A program made the position numbers and the translations under genes. A model generated the notes under the pieces. The model did not search any database. It saw nothing but the letters and a program-made list of their open reading frames with translations, and was not told the origin of the DNA. Of a stretch of 64,000 bases of DNA, positions 6,476 to 38,852 are shown piece after piece. The stretch comes from an uncultured Mycoplasmatota bacterium (GTDB taxonomy: Bacteria; Bacillota_I; Bacilli_A; RF39; UBA660). Numbering within the stretch: position 1 is the stretch's first letter; each line of letters starts with the position of its first letter. The stretch covers positions 5,164-69,163 of the forward strand of contig URWD01000001.1 in NCBI GenBank assembly GCA_900551525.1. The letters are read 5' to 3'.

Positions 6476-6916
6476 ATGAATAGAGAAAGTAAATCATCAG
6501 AAGGCAACTGCATTAATGAAATACTATGTGTCATTTTAGTTCTTCAAGAAAATGCATGTCCAGATAATTGTTTACAAACTTGCGATAGACCAGTACTTGG
6601 TGGAGGAAGCAATTGCCTCGTATGTAACACTAGACCTGTAATGCTTTATACTTGTGGTGGTAATGGTACTCCATGGAGTATGCCAACAACTAAAGACTCT
6701 ACAGCTACATGTACAGGAAGTACTACTACTTGTTCAAATGTTTTCAGAGTAGAAAAAATAGAAGGCAACTGCTGTACATTCCGTGTTTTAGCAGATAATA
6801 CTGATGAAACTAGTGTTTATCCATATGTTGCTACAAATGTTTTCTTTACAATGGATTGCGATTGTCTATGCTGCATAAGATGTTTATCTGATACATATGT
6901 AGATTGTCTTTGCTAA
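6476..6916 (+). CDS. CotY/CotZ-family cysteine-rich spore coat/crust protein
   Basis: 22 Cys in 146 aa. NVFRVEKIEGNCCTFRVL and TNVFFTMDCDCLCCIRCLSD resemble B. subtilis CotY/CotZ (FFRVEKL..CCATL, CFCAIQCL). Confidence 0.7.
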   Translation: MNRESKSSEGNCINEILCVILVLQENACPDNCLQTCDRPVLGGGSNCLVCNTRPVMLYTCGGNGTPWSMPTTKDSTATCTGSTTTCSNVFRVEKIEGNCCTFRVLADNTDETSVYPYVATNVFFTMDCDCLCCIRCLSDTYVDCLC

Positions 6917-6929
6917 TTATTAGGCAAAA

Positions 6930-6958
6930 TAAAAAGCACGTTTTGTGCTTTTTATTTT
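6930..6958. terminator. Bidirectional hairpin terminator between the cotZ-like gene (+) and prsA (-)
   Basis: aaaagcac-gtttt-gtgctttt with T-runs on both sides. Confidence 0.6.
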
Positions 6959-7983
6959 GTAGTTGAACTTGCAATAGATGCTAGTGCATTTTGTATGTAA
7001 TTAGAATATTGTTTCTTAATTTCGTCATCTTGGATTTCCATGCCATATTCTTTTCTATAATGTTGTAAAGCATTAAGTCCAACTGATGAAGAATTATCTT
7101 TGATATATTTGTCTGCAAGTGTTTTAAGAATACTTTCTTTTAGATTTTCTAAAGTGTCTTTTTCATAACTTTTAGTTTTAAGTATTACATGATATCCAAG
7201 TTCTGTTGTAATAACTGATGTACTATATTCACCATCTTTTAATTTTGTAGCAGCATCGATTAATTCATCATAGCTTGAACTTAGTGTGCCATAATTGATT
7301 TTACCTAAAGCACCACCTTTATCCTTAGTGTCATCATCTTTAGAATATTCTTTAGCAAGTTTAGTAAATGTTTCAGTGATGTCTTCTTTATTTTTCTTAG
7401 CTGTATTTAATTTTTCAATTATTTCATTTACAGTTTTTTTAGCAGCTTCTTCAGCAGCTTTCTTTTCATCATCTTTTGCACCATCTTTAACATCAGATGT
7501 TATAAGAATATGACTTACTTCCATATCTCCGATAGATTTGTTTTTGTAATAATCTTCTATTTCTTTGTCAGTTATTTTAGTTTTAGCATATTCTTCGATA
7601 GCATGACTTTGCATGTATGATAAATAGTAATAATCTTGGAATGCTTCGATTGTTTGATAATTTGTTTGACTTTGAATAGCAGCAAGTAATTTATCTTTAC
7701 CATCATATTGTGTAATTAAAGCATTGATTGTTGCTTCAGCATTACTTTTAGCAGTATCAACATAATCTTTAAATTCTTCTTCAAGAATATATGTATCTAT
7801 CATAGTGATTAAAGTATTAAGACCCATACCATCTTTTAATTTAGTATAAAAATCATCAACACTTATCTTTTCACCATTTTTAAAACTAACAATAGCTTCC
7901 TTTCCATTTTCTAATTTTGGCACTTTACCACAGCCACTTGCAAGTAGCATGATTGCACATAATGCAACTAATTTTTTCTTCAT
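6952..7983 (-). CDS. prsA: Foldase lipoprotein PrsA (parvulin-type PPIase)
   Basis: Lipobox LLASGC. The parvulin core is EVSHILI..(about 100 aa)..ELGYHVILK. Length and architecture match PrsA. Confidence 0.8.
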   Translation of the reverse strand: MKKKLVALCAIMLLASGCGKVPKLENGKEAIVSFKNGEKISVDDFYTKLKDGMGLNTLITMIDTYILEEEFKDYVDTAKSNAEATINALITQYDGKDKLLAAIQSQTNYQTIEAFQDYYYLSYMQSHAIEEYAKTKITDKEIEDYYKNKSIGDMEVSHILITSDVKDGAKDDEKKAAEEAAKKTVNEIIEKLNTAKKNKEDITETFTKLAKEYSKDDDTKDKGGALGKINYGTLSSSYDELIDAATKLKDGEYSTSVITTELGYHVILKTKSYEKDTLENLKESILKTLADKYIKDNSSSVGLNALQHYRKEYGMEIQDDEIKKQYSNYIQNALASIASSTTK

Positions 7984-31756: not shown

Positions 31757-31833
31757 GGGGAATTAGCTCAGTTGGCTAGAGCACCACGCTTGCACCGTGG
31801 GGGTCGCGGGTTCGAGTCCCACATTCTCCACCA
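31757..31833 (+). tRNA. tRNA-Ala (anticodon UGC)
   Basis: Cloverleaf with a 7-bp acceptor stem that includes the G3:U70 Ala identity pair, anticodon loop cTTGCAc, T-loop GGTTCGAGTCC, and an encoded CCA. Confidence 0.9.
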
Positions 31834-31927: not shown

Positions 31928-33721
31928 ATGAAAAACGAAAATATTAGAAATTTTTCAATTATTGCTCATATAGATCATGGTAAGAGTACTTTAGCAGATA
32001 GACTTTTGGAACTTACTGGTGCAGTTTCTAAAAGAGAAATGAAAGAGCAAATTCTTGATAATATGGATTTGGAAAGAGAAAGAGGTATAACAATTAAGCT
32101 TAATGCTGTGAAGTTAAATTATCATTATAAAAATGAAGATTATGTTATAAACTTAATTGATACTCCAGGTCATGTTGACTTTTCTTATGAAGTTTCAAGA
32201 AGTTTAGCAGCTTGTGAAGGCGCTATTTTAGTTGTTGATGCTGCTCAAGGTATTGAAGCTCAAACACTAGCTAATTTATACCTTGCTATGGAACAAGATT
32301 TAACTATTATTCCTGTTATAAATAAAATAGATTTACCAAATGCTGATATTCCAAGAGTAAAAAAAGAACTTGTGGAAGTTTTAGGTTTTAACGAAGAAGA
32401 TATTATTTTGTGTAGTGCTAAAACAGGTGAAGGTGTTGAAGAAATACTTCATGCTGTTGTTGAAAAGGTGCCTGGACCTAATATTGATATAAATAAACCT
32501 ACGCGAGCTTTAATATTTGACTCATATTTTGATCCTTATCGTGGGGTTGTTTTACTAGTTAAACTTGTTGATGGAAAAATAAATGTTGGTGATACCATAA
32601 AAATGATGGCTAGTAAAAGTACTTTTGAAGTTGTAGAACTTGGAGTTCATACACCAAAAGAGGAAAAATATAATGAACTTAAAAGTGGTGAAGTTGGATA
32701 TATAGCAGCATCAATTAAAGATATAAGTACAGTATCTGTTGGTGATACAATTACAGTTGTGGGCCGTGAAGCAAATGAAGCAATCAAAGGCTACAAGAAG
32801 ATGAAGCCAATGGTATTTTCAGGCATATTTCCAACTGAACCAAACAGATACGAAGAATTAAAAGAAGCACTTATTAAACTCAAATTAAATGATGCGGCAT
32901 TAACGTTTGAACCTGAAACAAGTGAAGCTTTAGGTTTTGGTTTTAGAATTGGTTTTTTAGGATTACTTCATATGGATGTAATAATAACTCGTATTGAGAG
33001 AGAATTTAATATTGGTATTATTGCTACTAGTCCAAGTGTTGTTTATGAGGTTACCCTTACTGATGGAAGTAAAGTAGATGTTGATGCTCCATCAAAAATG
33101 CCAGAAAAAACAAAAATTAGTTATATTGAAGAACCTTATATTTATACAAATATAATTGCTCCATCTGAATATATTGGGGCAATTATGGAACTTTGTCAAA
33201 ATAAGCGTGGTATATATAAGTCAGTTGATTATATTGATGCAACAAGAATTGATGTTCACTATGAAATACCGCTATCAGAAATCGTTTATGATTTTTATGA
33301 TAGATTAAAAAGCACAACAAAGGGATATGCTTCATTTGATTATGAATTATGTGGATATAAAGAAAGTAGTTTAGTTAAAATGGATATTTTGCTTAATGGT
33401 GAAATTGTAGATGCCTTAAGTGTAATTATTCATAAAGATTTTGCTTACTCTAAGGGAAGAGCAATTGTTAAGAAGTTACGTGAACTTATTCCAAGACAAA
33501 TGTTTCAAATACCAATTCAAGCAAGTATTGGTTCTAAAGTTATTGCTAGAGAAAATATTAGTGCTTTAAAAAAGAATGTTTTAGCTAAATGTTATGGCGG
33601 AGACGTTTCTCGAAAAAGAAAACTACTTGAAAAGCAAAAGGAAGGAAAGAAAAGAATGAAGATGGTTGGTACTGTTGAAGTTCCTCAAGAAGCATTCTTA
33701 GCAGTTTTAGGTGATGAATAA
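31928..33721 (+). CDS. lepA: Translation elongation factor 4
   Basis: G-domain [23 protein letters not shown], then the LepA-specific C-terminal domain. About 598 aa. Confidence 0.93.
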
Positions 33722-34209
33722 TGAGTGAAGAAGAAAAGAAAATGTTTTTATTAAAGCAAGCTGATATGTATTTAAGTGGTATGTCATATAGACAAATTGC
33801 TAAAGTTGTTGGTCAATCTTATGTTACAGTTCGTGATAATCTTACAGTAAAAATTAGATATATTGCTCCAAATAAATACATGGAAGTTATGGAAAAAATT
33901 GAAGAAAATAAAGAAAAGTCAATTGAGGATGCATCAGTTAGAGAACGTGTTTTAGAAGCTTATAGACTTTTGACAACAGAAAATAAAACTGTTATAGAAA
34001 TTGCTGATATTTTGGGCACTACTGAGTTTACAATTTATAGAGATTTAACTAATAGATTAAATGAACTTAATAATATAGTTCCGGAAATTGTTACAGAAGA
34101 AATGTTAAGAAAAGTAGGAATATTATTTAAAGAACATAGTCATCATGGATATTTTGACTTTGAAAGTTTATTTGATGAACAAGCAAATGCTGAACAAAGA
34201 GGGCTATAA
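33721..34209 (+). CDS. Hypothetical DNA-binding protein with two sigma-region-4/HTH-like segments
   Basis: SYRQIAKVVGQSYVTVRDNL and TVIEIADILGTTEFTIYRDL HTH-like segments. Inserted between lepA and hemW. Confidence 0.45.
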   Translation: MSEEEKKMFLLKQADMYLSGMSYRQIAKVVGQSYVTVRDNLTVKIRYIAPNKYMEVMEKIEENKEKSIEDASVRERVLEAYRLLTTENKTVIEIADILGTTEFTIYRDLTNRLNELNNIVPEIVTEEMLRKVGILFKEHSHHGYFDFESLFDEQANAEQRGL

Positions 34210-35288
34210 TGGCATCTTCAGTTTATATTCATATTCCATTTTGTAAGAAAATATGTTCTTATTGTGATTTTTGTAAATTTATTTATAATGAGAAATGGGT
34301 TTATGCTTATTTAAAAACTTTGAAAGCTGAAATTAAAGATAGATATATGGGGGATGAAATAAAAACTATATATATTGGTGGAGGAACTCCAAGTAGTCTT
34401 GCTTTTCATGAAATTAAAAGTTTACTTGAGATGACTAAAGTTTTTAATATAAGAAATTTATTAGAATTTACTTTTGAATGTAATCTTGAAGATATTAATG
34501 AACAACTTTTATTACTTTTAAAAAGCTATGGTGTAAATAGACTTAGTATAGGCATTGAATCATTTGATGAGAATAAACTTAAATTTATGGAAAGAAAAGC
34601 AGATTTTAAAGATGCTGAAGCAAAAATTAAATTATGTAGAAAGCTCGGGTTTAATAATATTAATTTGGATTTAATGTATGCAATACCTGGTGAAACTCTA
34701 AAAGCGTTAAAAAAAGATTTAAATATGTTTTTAAAACTAGAGCCTGAACATATAAGTACGTATAGTTTAATTTTAGAAGAACACACTAAAGCTTATGTTA
34801 ATAAAATTACTGTTATGGAAGAAGAACTTGATTATGAAATGTATAAATATATTGAAAATAAATTAAGTGGGTCTCATCACTATGAAGTTAGTAATTTTGC
34901 TAAAAAAGGTTTTGAAAGTATTCATAACTTAGTATATTGGAATAATGAAGAATATTACGGATTTGGGTTGGGAGCTTCTGGTTATTTAGATAAAATAAGA
35001 TATACGAATACGAAGACTCTAAAAAATTATTTACTCGGAAATTACGTCGAAGACAGAGAAATTATTGGTGAAAAAGAAAATATGGATTATGAAATAATGC
35101 TAGGTTTAAGAAAAATAGATGGAATAAATTTAACAGATTTTAAAAATAAGTTTGGTAAAAAACTTGAAGAAGTTTATAATGTGAAACCACTATTAAAAAG
35201 TAAAGAATTAATAAAGAAAAAAGATTATATTTTTATTAATCCAATTTATATTTATGTAATGAATGAAATACTTTTGAAAATAATTTGA
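34209..35288 (+). CDS. hemW: Radical SAM heme chaperone HemW (HemN-like, oxygen-independent coproporphyrinogen oxidase family)
   Basis: CxxxCxxC radical-SAM cluster motif in IHIPFCKKICSYCDFC. Conserved lepA-hemW synteny. Confidence 0.85.
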   Translation: MASSVYIHIPFCKKICSYCDFCKFIYNEKWVYAYLKTLKAEIKDRYMGDEIKTIYIGGGTPSSLAFHEIKSLLEMTKVFNIRNLLEFTFECNLEDINEQLLLLLKSYGVNRLSIGIESFDENKLKFMERKADFKDAEAKIKLCRKLGFNNINLDLMYAIPGETLKALKKDLNMFLKLEPEHISTYSLILEEHTKAYVNKITVMEEELDYEMYKYIENKLSGSHHYEVSNFAKKGFESIHNLVYWNNEEYYGFGLGASGYLDKIRYTNTKTLKNYLLGNYVEDREIIGEKENMDYEIMLGLRKIDGINLTDFKNKFGKKLEEVYNVKPLLKSKELIKKKDYIFINPIYIYVMNEILLKII

Positions 35289-35294
35289 TATTTT

Positions 35295-35720
35295 TTGAGC
35301 ACACTATCTATGGGAAGTGATAGTGTGCTTTTAGATTTGAAAATATTAAATGGAAATATGTTTTTAAAGTTTGATAAGTATGTAAATAATTATACAGTTA
35401 ATGTCGCAAGTGATGTAGATACATTAGAAATAGAATATAAAATTAGGGATACTGATGAAATTAAAATTGTAAATAATGAGATTTTAAATTATGGACTTAA
35501 TTATGTCTTTTTGGAAGTAACAAGTGAAGAAGAAAAAAATGTTTATACCTTAGAGGTTTATAAAGAAAAGATAGAAAATGTTATGAAATATGAAGATGTT
35601 TTAGTAGCTAAAAGTGATAAAGAAGCAAATGAGAATATGCCTTATATAATATCATTTGTATGCTTGGTAGTAATTTTGTTTTTCTTTGTTGTCATATTTC
35701 ATCGAAAAAAGTCGAAATAG
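35295..35720 (+). CDS. Hypothetical protein with a C-terminal TM anchor (start uncertain: TTG 35295 / ATG 35310)
   Basis: ORF. The start region lies inside a perfect 11-bp inverted repeat (35298-35331). Confidence 0.4.
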   Translation: MSTLSMGSDSVLLDLKILNGNMFLKFDKYVNNYTVNVASDVDTLEIEYKIRDTDEIKIVNNEILNYGLNYVFLEVTSEEEKNVYTLEVYKEKIENVMKYEDVLVAKSDKEANENMPYIISFVCLVVILFFFVVIFHRKKSK

Positions 35721-35792
35721 AATAAACTTTACATTTGTTTACATAATGTATATATTTAAAAAATAAAAATATTTTTATAATTATTATTAGAT

Positions 35793-35828
35793 ATTTCTGT
35801 GCAAATTTTAGCCACAGAAATTTTTTTG
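35793..35828 (+). terminator. Hairpin terminator (9-bp stem) upstream of the bacteriocin transporter gene
   Basis: atttctgtg-caaattttagc-cacagaaat followed by T7. Confidence 0.6.
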
Positions 35829-35901
35829 CAAAAAAGTTTAAAAAATAAGGGGGAAAAATTGGTCCATTTAGGAAATATATAAAGTGAAGGGAGAAATTAG
35901 A

Positions 35902-37938
35902 ATGAAGATTGTTAGACAACAAGATGAAAAAGATTGTGGAGTTTGCTCTTTATTATCTATAATTAGATATTATAAAGGTAATGTTCCTCTTGAACAATTA
36001 AGGTTAGATGCTAGAACTAGTAATGAGGGGACTACTGCTCTTAATTTAGTTCTTGCAAGTCAAAAATATGGATTTGATGCTGTTGGAATGAAAGTAGAAA
36101 ATTTAAATGATATTAAAAGATTACCTGCCATTGCTCATTTGAATTTGAAAAAAGGATATAGTCATTATGTAGTTATTGAGAAAGTCACTAAAGACAAAAT
36201 TATATTAATGGATCCGGCGAAAGGTAAGGTGGTAAAGTTTCTTTGGGAGTTTCAAAAAGAATGGAGTGGTGTGGTTTTAATTTTTTATCCTAAGCAAAAA
36301 ATAATGGTTTTAAAAAATGATGTAACATTATTTACAATATTTAAAAAAGTTTTTATTTCTGAAAAGAACTTGATTAAAATTATTGTTTTAGTTAGTTTTC
36401 TTTTAACAATTTTTACAATAGCTTTAGGTTATTACTTTCAAATGTTTAATTCTCTCTATTTAAATAAGTATCCAATAAACTATTTGAAAGTATTGGTTCT
36501 TGTTTTTGCAATATTTACTTGCTTTAAGCTTTTTCTTACTTATTATCGTAGTTATTTAGAAAATCATTTAAATAAAAATATTGATTGTTTGATTACATCT
36601 GATTTTCTAAAACATTTATTTAATCTCCCTTTAAATGTTATTACTTCTAGAAAATCTGGAGAAATACTTTCAAGAGTAAATGAACTTACAAGTATTAAAG
36701 GTTTAATTACGGAGATCTTTATTACTTATACTTTAGATTTTTTAATAGTAGTAATAACAACATTTCTATTAATAAGAATAAGTAGTAAATTATTTTTAAT
36801 ACTTTTTCTAACAACTATTTTTTACTTATTTGTAGGAATTATAACTAAAAAAAGTATTTTTGAAAAAGCATATCAGAATATATCAATTGAATCAGAATTT
36901 AATAATACTGTTTTAGAAAATATCAAAATGATTAATAGTATTAAAAATTTGGATGCTGTTGATGGCACTTTAAATAAGATAGAAAGAAAATTAACTCACT
37001 ATTTATATGACACTTATAAAGTTAATACTATTTTAAATAAAATAAATATATTTAAAGTATCTTGCTATGAAATAGGCTTTTTTCTCATAAATACTTTTGG
37101 GTTTTACTTTGTTTATAAAGGTATTATCAATATGATTGATTTGATTACTTTTAATGCTTTACTTAATCTTTATTTTGAACCATTAAAAAATATTGTGGAT
37201 TCCATACCTAAATATAGTTTTATGAAGGCTAGTATTACTAAAATTAATGACTTTTTAGGTGTTCGTGCGGAAATATTAGGTGAAAAAACTTCAACTGATG
37301 GTTATGATATATCAATAAATAATTTAAATTATTCTTATAATAAATATCAAAATGTTTTAAAAAGTGTAAACTTAAATATTAAAGAAGGCGAGTTTGTTCT
37401 TTTACAAGGCGCATCTGGTTCAGGTAAATCAACCTTATGTAGTATTTTAAATAAATATATAACGGATTATACCGGGGATATATTATTTGGAAAAATGAAT
37501 TATAAAGATTTGAGTATAAAAACTATTCGAGAAAATATTGTATACGTTGGTCAAAATGAAAATATATTTACTGGTTCTATTAAAGAAAATATTACTTTTG
37601 GTAATAAAGTATCTGATTTAAACTTTGATAAAATTTGCAAAATTTGTAAAGTTGATGATGTTGCAAATAAAAAAACTTTTAGATATGAAAGTTTAATTGG
37701 AAGTGATGAAGGTAATATTTCGGGAGGAGAAAAACAAAGAATTATTTTAGCTAGAGCTGTGCTAAAAGATTTTAATGTTTTGATTCTTGATGAGGCTTTA
37801 AGTGAAGTTGATATAAAGTTAGAATTGGAAATTTTGAAGAATATTCGAGATAATTACAAAGATAAAACAATAATTTATATTTCACATAAAAAATATCCAA
37901 ATGTATTTGATAAGGTTATTAGTATGGAGGCTGTATGA
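35902..37938 (+). CDS. Peptidase C39-domain bacteriocin-processing ABC transporter (ATP-binding/permease)
   Basis: N-terminal C39 Cys protease (QQDEKDCGVCSLLSII). Six-TM ABC exporter domain. Walker A GASGSGKST, signature ISGGEKQRI, Walker B ILDEALS. RBS gggag precedes ATG 35902. Confidence 0.9.
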   Translation: MKIVRQQDEKDCGVCSLLSIIRYYKGNVPLEQLRLDARTSNEGTTALNLVLASQKYGFDAVGMKVENLNDIKRLPAIAHLNLKKGYSHYVVIEKVTKDKIILMDPAKGKVVKFLWEFQKEWSGVVLIFYPKQKIMVLKNDVTLFTIFKKVFISEKNLIKIIVLVSFLLTIFTIALGYYFQMFNSLYLNKYPINYLKVLVLVFAIFTCFKLFLTYYRSYLENHLNKNIDCLITSDFLKHLFNLPLNVITSRKSGEILSRVNELTSIKGLITEIFITYTLDFLIVVITTFLLIRISSKLFLILFLTTIFYLFVGIITKKSIFEKAYQNISIESEFNNTVLENIKMINSIKNLDAVDGTLNKIERKLTHYLYDTYKVNTILNKINIFKVSCYEIGFFLINTFGFYFVYKGIINMIDLITFNALLNLYFEPLKNIVDSIPKYSFMKASITKINDFLGVRAEILGEKTSTDGYDISINNLNYSYNKYQNVLKSVNLNIKEGEFVLLQGASGSGKSTLCSILNKYITDYTGDILFGKMNYKDLSIKTIRENIVYVGQNENIFTGSIKENITFGNKVSDLNFDKICKICKVDDVANKKTFRYESLIGSDEGNISGGEKQRIILARAVLKDFNVLILDEALSEVDIKLELEILKNIRDNYKDKTIIYISHKKYPNVFDKVISMEAV

Positions 37939-38336
37939 ACTATTTAGATTTAATTAATATAAAATATTCATGTAAGAAAGGATTATTTGTTTTAATTGTA
38001 ATTTTTATGACTCTTTTAGTATATGTTTTAAATTTAAACATGTATGAAAGTTTTAATACCTATGGTTATGTACAAGATGAATTATTAAATATTAAAATAT
38101 CTATACAAACCCCTGATATGTTAACTAATCTAAAGTATATAAAAATAGGAAGTAATAATTATAAAGTGGAAATTAAAGAGATAAGTGATATGTTACTTGA
38201 TGAAGAAAATTTTATTAATTATCAAATAGTTAAAATGAAAATAGATGAAAGATTAAATAATAACCAAGTATTTGAAATATGTATTTTTTATAATGAAGAA
38301 AAAGTATATAAAAAAATTTTAAAATTGTTATTTTAG
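37935..38336 (+). CDS. Hypothetical membrane-anchored protein (133 aa), possible bacteriocin accessory or immunity protein
   Basis: Translationally coupled to the transporter. N-terminal TM. Role assigned by context only. Confidence 0.45.
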   Translation: MNYLDLINIKYSCKKGLFVLIVIFMTLLVYVLNLNMYESFNTYGYVQDELLNIKISIQTPDMLTNLKYIKIGSNNYKVEIKEISDMLLDEENFINYQIVKMKIDERLNNNQVFEICIFYNEEKVYKKILKLLF

Positions 38337-38345
38337 GAGGTAAAT

Positions 38346-38480
38346 ATGGAGATTTTAAGTAATGAAAAAATGAATAGTATTAATGGTGGAGGAAGGTCAA
38401 TTTGGTTTATAATTGGCGGTATTGGAACCTTTTTATTAGGGTTCTTAAACGGATTTGTAAATCCTAAAAAATGTAACTAA
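38346..38480 (+). CDS. Double-glycine-leader bacteriocin precursor peptide (44 aa): leader MEILSNEKMNSINGG | mature GRSIWFIIGGIGTFLLGFLNGFVNPKKCN
   Basis: RBS aggagg 5 nt upstream. The leader fits LS..E(K)..I.GG. The mature peptide is small, cationic and hydrophobic, with GxxxG (GFLNG). Not in the ORF track because it is under 60 aa. Confidence 0.65.
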   Translation: MEILSNEKMNSINGGGRSIWFIIGGIGTFLLGFLNGFVNPKKCN

Positions 38481-38491
38481 GGAGGAAAATT

Positions 38492-38653
38492 ATGATATTA
38501 AAAAATGAAGAGTTAGCTGTTATTGATGGTGGAGGATTCACTGCAACGTTTTTCAATTCTATTGCTAGACTTGGTAAAACAATATATGATATTGGTTATG
38601 AAGTGGGTTCATCTGTTAGAAGATTGCTTGGAAGAACTTTATGTAAAATTTAA
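38492..38653 (+). CDS. Double-glycine-leader bacteriocin precursor peptide (53 aa): leader MILKNEELAVIDGG | mature GFTATFFNSIARLGKTIYDIGYEVGSSVRRLLGRTLCKI
   Basis: RBS aaggagg. The leader fits L..EEL..I.GG. GxxxG (GYEVG) suggests the second peptide of a two-peptide (class IIb-like) bacteriocin. It overrides the overlapping track ORF 38523..38720. Confidence 0.65.
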   Translation: MILKNEELAVIDGGGFTATFFNSIARLGKTIYDIGYEVGSSVRRLLGRTLCKI

Positions 38654-38852
38654 AAAGGCTTATGCCTTTTTGGTACAGATTGGTATTTGTCTTTGGATGA
38701 AGATAGAAAATATAACTTGATTAAATAAGAAAAAAGTAATATTTGTGGTAAATACTAGCATAACTTTGCGAAAATAGTGCAAAATTTGAAGAAAAATGTT
38801 GATAATGCTTAAACCTGATGTTATAATATTTATTGTAACAAGAAGGGAGGGA

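Follow-up and report, generated by a model that had tools for sequence, protein, structure and literature searches.

A peptidase-containing ABC exporter and a conserved pair of double-glycine peptides: a probable class IIb-like two-peptide system of uncultured Bacilli

The stretch of DNA analysed here (64,000 nt, hereafter the window; contig URWD01000001.1, positions 5,164 to 69,163, of assembly GCA_900551525.1) comes from an uncultured Mycoplasmatota bacterium and has a GC content of 26%. At positions 35902-38653, between hemW (34209-35288) and rpsU, it carries a compact block of four same-strand genes, the coordinates of which were checked open reading frame (ORF) by ORF: a 678-residue peptidase-containing ATP-binding cassette (ABC) transporter, or PCAT (35902..37938, forward strand, as are all features below unless marked otherwise), a 133-residue bitopic membrane protein (37935..38336), and two short precursor peptides, which we call pepA (38346..38480) and pepB (38492..38653). 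A preliminary description, made from the sequence alone, had proposed a C39-peptidase ABC exporter with an accessory ORF and a pair of double-glycine-leader precursors, and all of these were found where they had been placed, in a block bounded by hairpins. The reading that we favour, as probable though well short of certain, is that the four genes form an operon for a class IIb-like two-peptide system, with an unmodified, cationic, helical, membrane-active pair belonging to a new family.

Translation of pepA gives a precursor of 44 residues in which a 15-residue leader, MEILSNEKMNSINGG (38346-38390), precedes a predicted mature peptide of 29 residues, GRSIWFIIGGIGTFLLGFLNGFVNPKKCN (38391-38477). 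After a gap of 11 nt on the same strand, pepB gives a precursor of 53 residues, with a 14-residue leader, MILKNEELAVIDGG (38492-38533), and a predicted mature peptide of 39 residues, GFTATFFNSIARLGKTIYDIGYEVGSSVRRLLGRTLCKI (38534-38650). The strong ribosome-binding sites claimed for the 44- and 53-residue ORFs are there, an AGGAGG lying 5 nt upstream of pepA and 6 nt upstream of pepB. Both leaders have GG at positions -2 and -1, hydrophobic residues at -4, -7, and -12, and a glutamate at -8 or -9. The match to the leader model TIGR01847 is weak (E = 0.033), and the assignment as double-glycine leaders is upheld by a count across the window: among the 575 ORFs of 30 to 90 residues with a start codon, in six frames over 64 kb, the pattern of GG with hydrophobic residues at -4/-7/-12 occurs in pepA and pepB and nowhere else. 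The pair had been described as unannotated, which is right for an ORF track with a 60-residue minimum and wrong for public gene calls, where pepA appears on 569 contigs and pepB on 805, mostly from human-gut metagenomes, in each case as “hypothetical protein.”

Short ORFs are common in a genome of 26% GC, and the two could be chance reading frames without a product. Their conservation and the selection acting on them refute this notion, and we give it practically no credence. Relative to relatives with 63-92% exporter identity, the ratio of nonsynonymous to synonymous substitution rates (dN/dS) is 0.11-0.33 for pepA and 0.03-0.38 for pepB; the ribosome-binding sites are strong; the leader pattern is confined to these two of 575 candidates; and pepB homologues fall into 257 clusters at E<=0.01, the most informative name among them being “unknown [Mycoplasma sp. 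CAG:776].” Within the species, up to 13 of the 162 nucleotides of pepB differ, with three amino-acid changes, all in the leader, so that the mature peptide is unchanged. Purifying dN/dS, together with the occurrence of an A-then-B pair in the 25 loci described below, establishes pepA and pepB as real genes. A 65-residue ORF in another frame (38523-38720), already suspected of being spurious, is interrupted by stop codons in six of seven relatives and was rejected.

The exporter, read from its ATG, consists of an N-terminal C39 peptidase, a six-helix transmembrane domain, and a nucleotide-binding domain, with Pfam matches that are all above the gathering thresholds (Peptidase_C39, 1.3e-35; ABC_membrane, 3.5e-23; ABC_tran, 7.6e-25). 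It scores 384.2 bits against TIGR01193, below the curated cut-off of 523.85, and 310.4 bits against the mycoplasma model NF045998, where the curated cut-off is 500 bits; on sequence grounds it is a divergent branch of the PCAT superfamily. The closest solved structures are those of PCAT1 from Clostridium thermocellum (4ry2, E = 1.8e-87) and ComA from Streptococcus (8hf4, E = 2.9e-82), with which it shares the domain order C39-transmembrane-nucleotide-binding, the catalytic residues, and the ABC motifs, whereas its score under the TIGR01193 cut-off sets it apart. Its Cys (in DCG), His (in HYVV), and Asp (in MDP) align with identical residues of PCAT1. We take these positions to be the C39 catalytic triad, and since they are intact and matched to those of PCAT1, the protein looks like an active-type PCAT, one that would be expected to cut double-glycine leaders and export both peptides. 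Unlike ComA-type systems, in which the partner is a ComB/LcnD-type protein of about 450 residues, the window exporter is partnered by a single-pass protein of 133 residues.

The arrangement is conserved far beyond the window. Twenty-five loci carrying pepA and pepB (the window, L009-L019, and L047-L059) were drawn from a genome scan, from exact-match protein look-ups for distant homologues of the accessory protein and of pepB, and from scans with hidden Markov models (HMMs), and their hosts are metagenome-assembled genomes (MAGs) labelled as uncultured Bacilli, Erysipelotrichaceae, or Tenericutes. In every one of the 25, a pepA-like gene is followed by an adjacent pepB-like gene, and in 24 the pair comes directly after an exporter and a small protein, at identities to the window that go down to 33% for the exporter (range, 33-92%) and to 21-27% for the accessory protein. 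As a negative control, HMMs of the 133-residue protein, pepA, and pepB gave zero matches in 95 unrelated ABC loci (680 kb, 13,961 ORFs), including 80 from a metagenome scan with the exporter alignment in which the similarity is to generic ABC motifs only. A set of loci from Enterococcus and others (L020-L031), most with a long HlyD/LcnD-type accessory, likewise had no pepB or accessory match, and three of them (L021, L023, and L030) had pepA matches at the level of the leader only (E of 1.9e-5 to 5e-3). The Enterococcus exporters, about 32% identical to that of the window, are accompanied by the long accessory.

The preliminary description of the mature peptides as cationic and hydrophobic, with GxxxG motifs, holds up well. 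Mature pepA, with a charge of +3 and a 19-residue Kyte-Doolittle hydropathy of 1.76, is transmembrane-like and has a conserved Trp, a [G/S]xxxG motif, a Pro, and a single penultimate Cys; in an alignment of 16 diverse homologues, G24, G36 (the second Gly of the [G/S]xxxG), and P40 are invariant. Mature pepB, with a charge of +4 and a hydrophobic moment of 0.65, is amphipathic, and AlphaFold2 predicts a single helix over precursor residues 18-47 with a predicted local distance difference test score (pLDDT) of 91-94 in its core. Its GxxxG (GYEVG) keeps both glycines, G35 and G39, without exception in 61 sequences, and GxxxG[STYA] is present in 116 of 119 pepB representatives. In addition, pepB carries a GSS(I/V)RR motif, and GSSIRR, NP.KC, and the register of the Cys are nearly invariant across the 119.

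These properties recall the class IIb bacteriocins (lactococcin G, enterocin 1071, plantaricin EF/JK), which have in common with this locus two adjacent precursor genes with double-glycine leaders, cationic and helical mature peptides (29 and 39 residues here) with (small)xxxG motifs, and a C39 ABC exporter in the operon. Like lactococcin G-type peptides, the window's pair has a Trp close to the N-terminus and a C-terminus that is cationic. At E<=0.01, pepA homologues match both TIGR03949 (class IIb, lactobin A/cerein 7B; 10 of 16) and NF038034 (lactococcin G-beta; 7 of 16), and one of them, from L017, is the sole sequence to pass the TIGR03949 cut-off (30.3 versus 21.5 bits). The matches of pepB to bacteriocin models are weak and apparently driven by the leader. 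The class IIb likeness first proposed is supported by these relatives of pepA, and the window's own two peptides score under the curated cut-offs. Other differences from class IIb are that pepB is in a family of its own with no named homologue, that the window locus is without a conserved immunity gene, that each window peptide has one register-fixed C-terminal Cys, and that the module is syntenic and lineage-wide rather than patchy. In sum, most of the structural hallmarks of class IIb are found at this locus, an immunity gene being absent and the window's peptides scoring under the curated family cut-offs. The peptide family is a large and uncharacterised one, with no description found in the literature: our search turned up no reports of double-glycine peptides from Erysipelotrichia or mycoplasmas or of the GSSIRR, RPLKCN, or NPKKCN motifs, and the main text of the IIBacFinder gut-bacteriocin paper does not mention these peptides.

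The cysteines deserve separate treatment. In pepA, the spacing from the motif to the Cys is exactly 7 residues in the sequences inspected; in pepB, it is exactly 12 in 98 of the 99 sequences that have a Cys. In every lineage examined, both peptides have a C-terminal Cys, except in the L047/L053 clade (of the “Mycoplasma sp. CAG:776” type), where neither has one; a discordant locus, with Cys in one peptide only, was not found among the loci examined. Since the absence amounts to a single co-loss event, its statistical weight is small. Still, taken with the fixed registers, the co-loss suggests that the two cysteines work together, and the simplest reading of the sequences is that the helices pack in parallel and may be joined, close to their cationic C-termini, by an interchain disulfide. 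We know of no disulfide-linked class IIb pair, and a literature search found no class IIb pair with an interchain disulfide.

This joint behaviour of the cysteines also bears on whether pepA and pepB are a pair at all or two independent one-peptide bacteriocins of class IId type that happen to be served by a common exporter. That an exporter of this kind can serve additional cargo is suggested by three loci (L047, 4926-5057; L053, 3919-4059; L055, 3929-4054) in which a third double-glycine-leader peptide is encoded ahead of pepA. Against independence, however, are the strict co-occurrence of A and B in fixed order in 25 of 25 loci, the (small)xxxG motif in both peptides, and the C-terminal Cys that is either present in both or absent from both, and we regard two separate bacteriocins as very improbable.

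The second gene of the block is the least familiar component. Its ATG overlaps the exporter's TGA by 4 nt (ATGA), and the predicted product crosses the membrane once, with a cytoplasmic N-terminus before the transmembrane helix and, after it, a beta-rich domain of about 95 residues outside the cytoplasm and a C-terminal amphipathic helix; the AlphaFold2 model (pLDDT of 80.7) has the same order, with the transmembrane segment included in the N-terminal helix. With this model, Foldseek returned no match at E<=1e-3; among the weak matches are the membrane-fusion proteins Spr0693 and MacA, through their beta-barrel domains (E of 0.09-0.4), and the HerA barrel. Pfam had no match for the protein and none that was consistent among 87 relatives. 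An exhaustive HMMER search at E<=1e-3 gave 196 clusters, nearly all full-length at 121-164 residues with few shorter partial matches, and the best-conserved stretches are the N-terminal MNYLDLINIKY and the C-terminal IFYNEEKVYKK. By these sequence comparisons, the protein is a member of a new, undescribed family of about 130-150 residues.

In favour of the label “accessory ORF,” a small membrane ORF is indeed present, and it has in common with LcnD/ComB/HlyD proteins a place right after the exporter, a cytoplasmic N-terminal stretch, a single transmembrane helix, and a beta-rich extracytoplasmic domain, the last with the weak Spr0693/MacA barrel matches only. A canonical LcnD/ComB/HlyD accessory, however, is ruled out by the size of 133 residues (versus about 450), an hhalign probability of 1.2% against an alignment of LcnD-like proteins of about 460 residues from Enterococcus, and the absence of any consistent Pfam match in 87 members, and there is no coiled-coil hairpin or lipoyl domain. 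A closer parallel comes from mycoplasmas, where NF045998 (the Mbov_0121 family of peptidase-domain ABC transporters) and NF045999 (MAG1140_fam, 126 residues) likewise describe a C39 ABC exporter and a protein of about 130 residues, and the hosts of our loci are neighbours of the Mollicutes, i.e., MAGs labelled Tenericutes, Erysipelotrichaceae, or “Mycoplasma sp. CAG:776.” The 133-residue protein aligns end to end with NF045999 at 15.2 bits (E = 0.018; curated cut-off, 35 bits), and 13 of 87 members of its family match the model, the best at E = 1.3e-6. Because every score from the window is below the curated cut-off, 500 bits for the transporter and 35 bits for its partner, these are to be considered remote relatives rather than members, and the same holds, as far as the sequences tell, for the 133-residue family as a whole. 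Our literature search found no function for Mbov_0121 or MAG1140, the former being merely listed; the link from the new family may provide a handle on the function of both.

What the 133-residue protein contributes would be minimal assistance to export, immunity, or both. As an immunity protein, it would block the peptides at the outer face of the producer, and the exporter would act alone, like PCAT1; this concerns one component and is compatible with the two-peptide reading of the locus, and we hold it to be a possible assignment, if a tentative one. Besides the exporter, the 133-residue protein is the sole partner conserved with the peptides (24 of 25 loci carrying pepA/pepB), and it lacks HlyD/LcnD homology. 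Moreover, the remaining locus, L058, has an exporter and both peptides without a gene of the 133-residue type, so that export may not require the protein, and the modelled extracytoplasmic beta domain could bind peptides. On the other hand, the start/stop overlap with the exporter, seen in the window and in distant loci, is typical of the subunits of one machine; the N-terminal motif, which is cytoplasmic and invariant, may be where the protein touches the transporter; and the relation to MAG1140, remote as it is and with the NF045998 score of the window exporter as its only tie here to the peptidase-ABC family, also points toward the transporter. Known class II immunity proteins, in contrast to this one, are four-helix bundles or multi-pass membrane proteins. 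In L058 (2264-5757), pepB is followed by genes for two paralogous, soluble-looking proteins of 150-159 residues and then by rpsU.

In the window, as had been noted, no dedicated immunity gene follows pepB and rpsU is next. Two proteins had been put forward for that role. One is the 133-residue protein, which is the only universally linked immunity candidate. The other, a 136/141-residue protein encoded upstream of the exporter (35295..35720), fared poorly: homologues (49-90% identity) were found only in the window's clade (L009-L016) and not in distant pepA/pepB loci, and because the peptide pair is far more widely conserved than this gene, it is an unlikely immunity protein, and its link to the module is doubtful. 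The protein has a weak similarity to a cadherin-like beta-sandwich (PF12733, E = 1e-4, below the cut-off) and a C-terminal transmembrane anchor. It has no signal peptide, and the C-terminal transmembrane helix is followed by HRKKSK, which is an unusual topology given that such domains are normally found outside the cell.

Other clades have small membrane proteins of their own downstream of pepB, none with a homologue in the window. In four loci, the gene right after pepB encodes a transmembrane protein of 56-69 residues (“MNKKGFA..YMVYSLFLIF...”; L047, 5402-5611; L053, 4442-4651; L054, 4461-4631; L055, 4450-4644), the N-terminus of which is homologous to the start of a Cys-rich protein of 268-281 residues encoded after pepB in L018 (2969-3814) and L051 (5296-6102). 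The small transmembrane protein is a plausible immunity or partner protein. In the same clade, a divergent regulator of 149-158 residues with two HTH_3 (helix-turn-helix) domains is encoded upstream of the exporter, on the opposite strand (L047, 1847-2296; L053, 850-1299; L054, 843-1295; L055, 815-1291), and the clade with this regulator and the third peptide includes the only loci in which both pepA and pepB are without Cys.

Put together as a two-peptide bacteriocin, the system would work as follows. The precursors would be translated with double-glycine leaders of 15 residues (pepA) and 14 residues (pepB), the exporter would cut after the GG by means of its C39 domain, and it would release the 29-residue pepA and the 39-residue pepB. 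The 133-residue protein, translationally coupled to the exporter and inherited together with the peptides, may serve as a minimal release accessory at the outer face of the membrane and may additionally protect the producer. Outside the cell, the helices of pepA and pepB would pack via their conserved (small)xxxG motifs with the cationic C-termini on one side, where the register-fixed cysteines could form an interchain disulfide, and the pair would then permeabilise the membranes of target cells.

A number of our results weigh against this account. The window's pepA and pepB are below every curated bacteriocin cut-off (TIGR03949, NF038034, and NF038035; E = 0.05-0.1). For the 133-residue protein, homology to LcnD/ComB was not detectable, the matches to membrane-fusion-protein beta-barrel folds are weak, at the E values given above, and L058 combines exporter, pepA, and pepB without it. 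No conserved immunity gene accompanies the peptide pair, the neighbouring small membrane proteins differing by clade. The module is found 0.1-2.4 kb from a downstream rpsU-yqeY in 18 of 25 loci, including lineages in which the accessory protein has 21-27% identity, and the high conservation of the mature peptides is more in keeping with a core role in physiology than with a weapon that varies from strain to strain. The upstream flank does vary: the window's clade has hemW there, other loci have spoIIIAH-gerE-gerM, and a further group has an AI-2E transporter together with a divergent double-HTH regulator of the XRE type. The persistence of the rpsU-yqeY synteny despite this indicates that the module has long been inherited vertically at a fixed site. 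It is no typical variable bacteriocin island, and its vertical conservation upstream of rpsU-yqeY leaves room for a role other than antagonism.

Such a role would be that of an exported pair with a self-directed or non-antagonistic function, for which bacteriocin-type export machinery is used without there being a weapon. The peptides could then act in development or sporulation, return from outside into the membrane as one of its components or as part of an ion channel, or serve as a signal. We judge this rather unlikely, though it is the main rival to the two-peptide bacteriocin. To the deep synteny and the absence of a conserved immunity gene can be added the strong purifying selection on the mature peptides, with GSSIRR, NP.KC, and the Cys register nearly invariant, the identity of pepB on all 805 contigs, and the nature of the hosts, which are spore-formers with small, AT-rich genomes and in which the flanking genes are often sporulation genes. 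The sporulation neighbours, however, may reflect ordinary Firmicutes synteny (rpsU-yqeY-yqfC-yqfD), and the module has no consistent link to a receptor, a kinase, or a regulator. Moreover, all existing sequence similarity is to class IIb bacteriocins, and cationic, amphipathic or transmembrane-like peptides with GxxxG are a hallmark of pore-forming two-peptide bacteriocins. As for signalling of the ComC/BlpC peptide-pheromone type, a quorum-sensing locus was rejected, there being no adjacent histidine kinase or response regulator: the neighbours over about 4 kb (lepA, a SpoIIID-like HTH gene, hemW, the 141-residue protein gene, rpsU, yqeY, and the gerA operon) have no kinase or receiver domains. 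The neighbourhood has no locus-specific modification enzyme either.

The Cys registers, the joint Cys loss, the lack of a conserved immunity gene, the deep synteny, and the purifying selection can also be combined into a bolder proposal, namely, that the pair is a disulfide-linked heterodimer delivered by a minimal machine of exporter and 133-residue protein, from an rpsU-anchored core locus that has been inherited vertically throughout a large lineage of gut Bacilli related to the Mollicutes and having small genomes, with a primary role in the physiology of the producer, e.g., as a developmental or sporulation-linked membrane-active factor. This we consider unlikely as a whole.

If the pair is active as a class IIb-like system, it would be a widespread unmodified two-peptide antimicrobial of abundant, uncultured human-gut Bacilli, and one which, with the exact peptides on hundreds of metagenomic contigs, has been overlooked by current family models. 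If the paired, register-fixed cysteines are indeed joined, this would be the first disulfide-linked two-peptide bacteriocin known to us. If, instead, the pair is a core, self-directed factor, then bacteriocin export machinery would have been recruited for housekeeping or developmental use. On the side of the machinery, proteins of a new family of about 130-150 residues take the place of the long HlyD-type accessory as partners of ABC exporters that cleave leaders.

The boundaries of the block are marked by hairpins. At the 3' end, a hairpin resembling an intrinsic terminator (AAAAAGGC-UUAU-GCCUUUUU; 38650..38673) overlaps the stop codon of pepB, has a folding energy of -10.5 kcal/mol (z = -3.3; none of 200 shuffles was equally stable), and, as seen in alternative-frame translations, keeps its stem in relatives while the loop varies. 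At the 5' end, a hairpin at 35793..35827 has a 9-bp stem followed by a T7 run (-9.4 kcal/mol, z = -2.4); it is kept with a compensatory change in L011, and in L014 and L016 another hairpin with a T-run replaces it. It is probably the terminator of the upstream 136/141-residue protein gene and hence the 5' boundary of the module; alternatively, it could be an attenuator, if a promoter-like site at 35728-35756 is used. The rpsU gene has a strong promoter-like site of its own (38799-38827; 11/12 matches, TG-extended). The hairpins at both ends, the separate rpsU site, and the compact same-strand layout make the four genes look like one operon.

Upstream of the exporter, a block at 35868..35901 contains the ribosome-binding site GAAGGGAG; in an alignment of 9 loci (63-92% exporter identity), about 30 nt of it (35868 to about 35897) are invariant, the last few bases before the ATG differ in some relatives, and the rest of the spacer varies. 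A direct repeat, TTTACA-N4-TTTACA (35728-35745), is also conserved and reads TTGACA in some relatives. Either or both may be a regulatory site or promoter; in a promoter scan of this AT-rich DNA, sigma-70-like sites were not in excess of shuffled expectation. Rfam gave a single match in the 64-kb window, a tRNA; at the locus itself it identified neither a riboswitch nor a leader RNA. The tRNA gene (31757-31830) stands alone, just upstream of lepA.

The 3' edge of the module shows variation of several kinds. Within the species, the peptide genes (38346-38653, compared with L001, L004, L006, and L007) have a nucleotide divergence of 4-8%, versus 0.4-1.8% for the exporter, and this excess may be due to recombination near the operon's 3' end or to old haplotypes there. 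Between pepB and rpsU, some strains and sister species have a PDDEXK_2 gene for an Rpn/transposase-like nuclease of 285-295 residues (L001 and L004-L007, about 6887-7744; L009, 8890-9777; L010, 8896-9771), which is absent from the window (38654-38795) and constitutes a presence/absence polymorphism. One public genome (P0329, an NCBI MAG, on a 122-kb contig) has a 76-residue product in which pepB residues 1-49 are fused to a tail from an alternative frame (…FYVKFKKAYAFLVQIGICLWMKIENIN), the result of a frameshift in pepB or of mis-assembly; that contig also gave P0070 and P0107, which are truncated calls of the accessory and of pepB. At the other flank, the SpoIIID-like HTH protein (33721-34209) has 162 residues in the window species and 340-347 in sister species, in which 1-2 extra paralogous genes for proteins of about 190-210 residues lie between the HTH gene and hemW (L011, 2706-4309; L014, 2167-4372; L015, 2116-4308). 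From the difference in length and the extra paralogues, the region upstream of hemW appears to be under remodelling.

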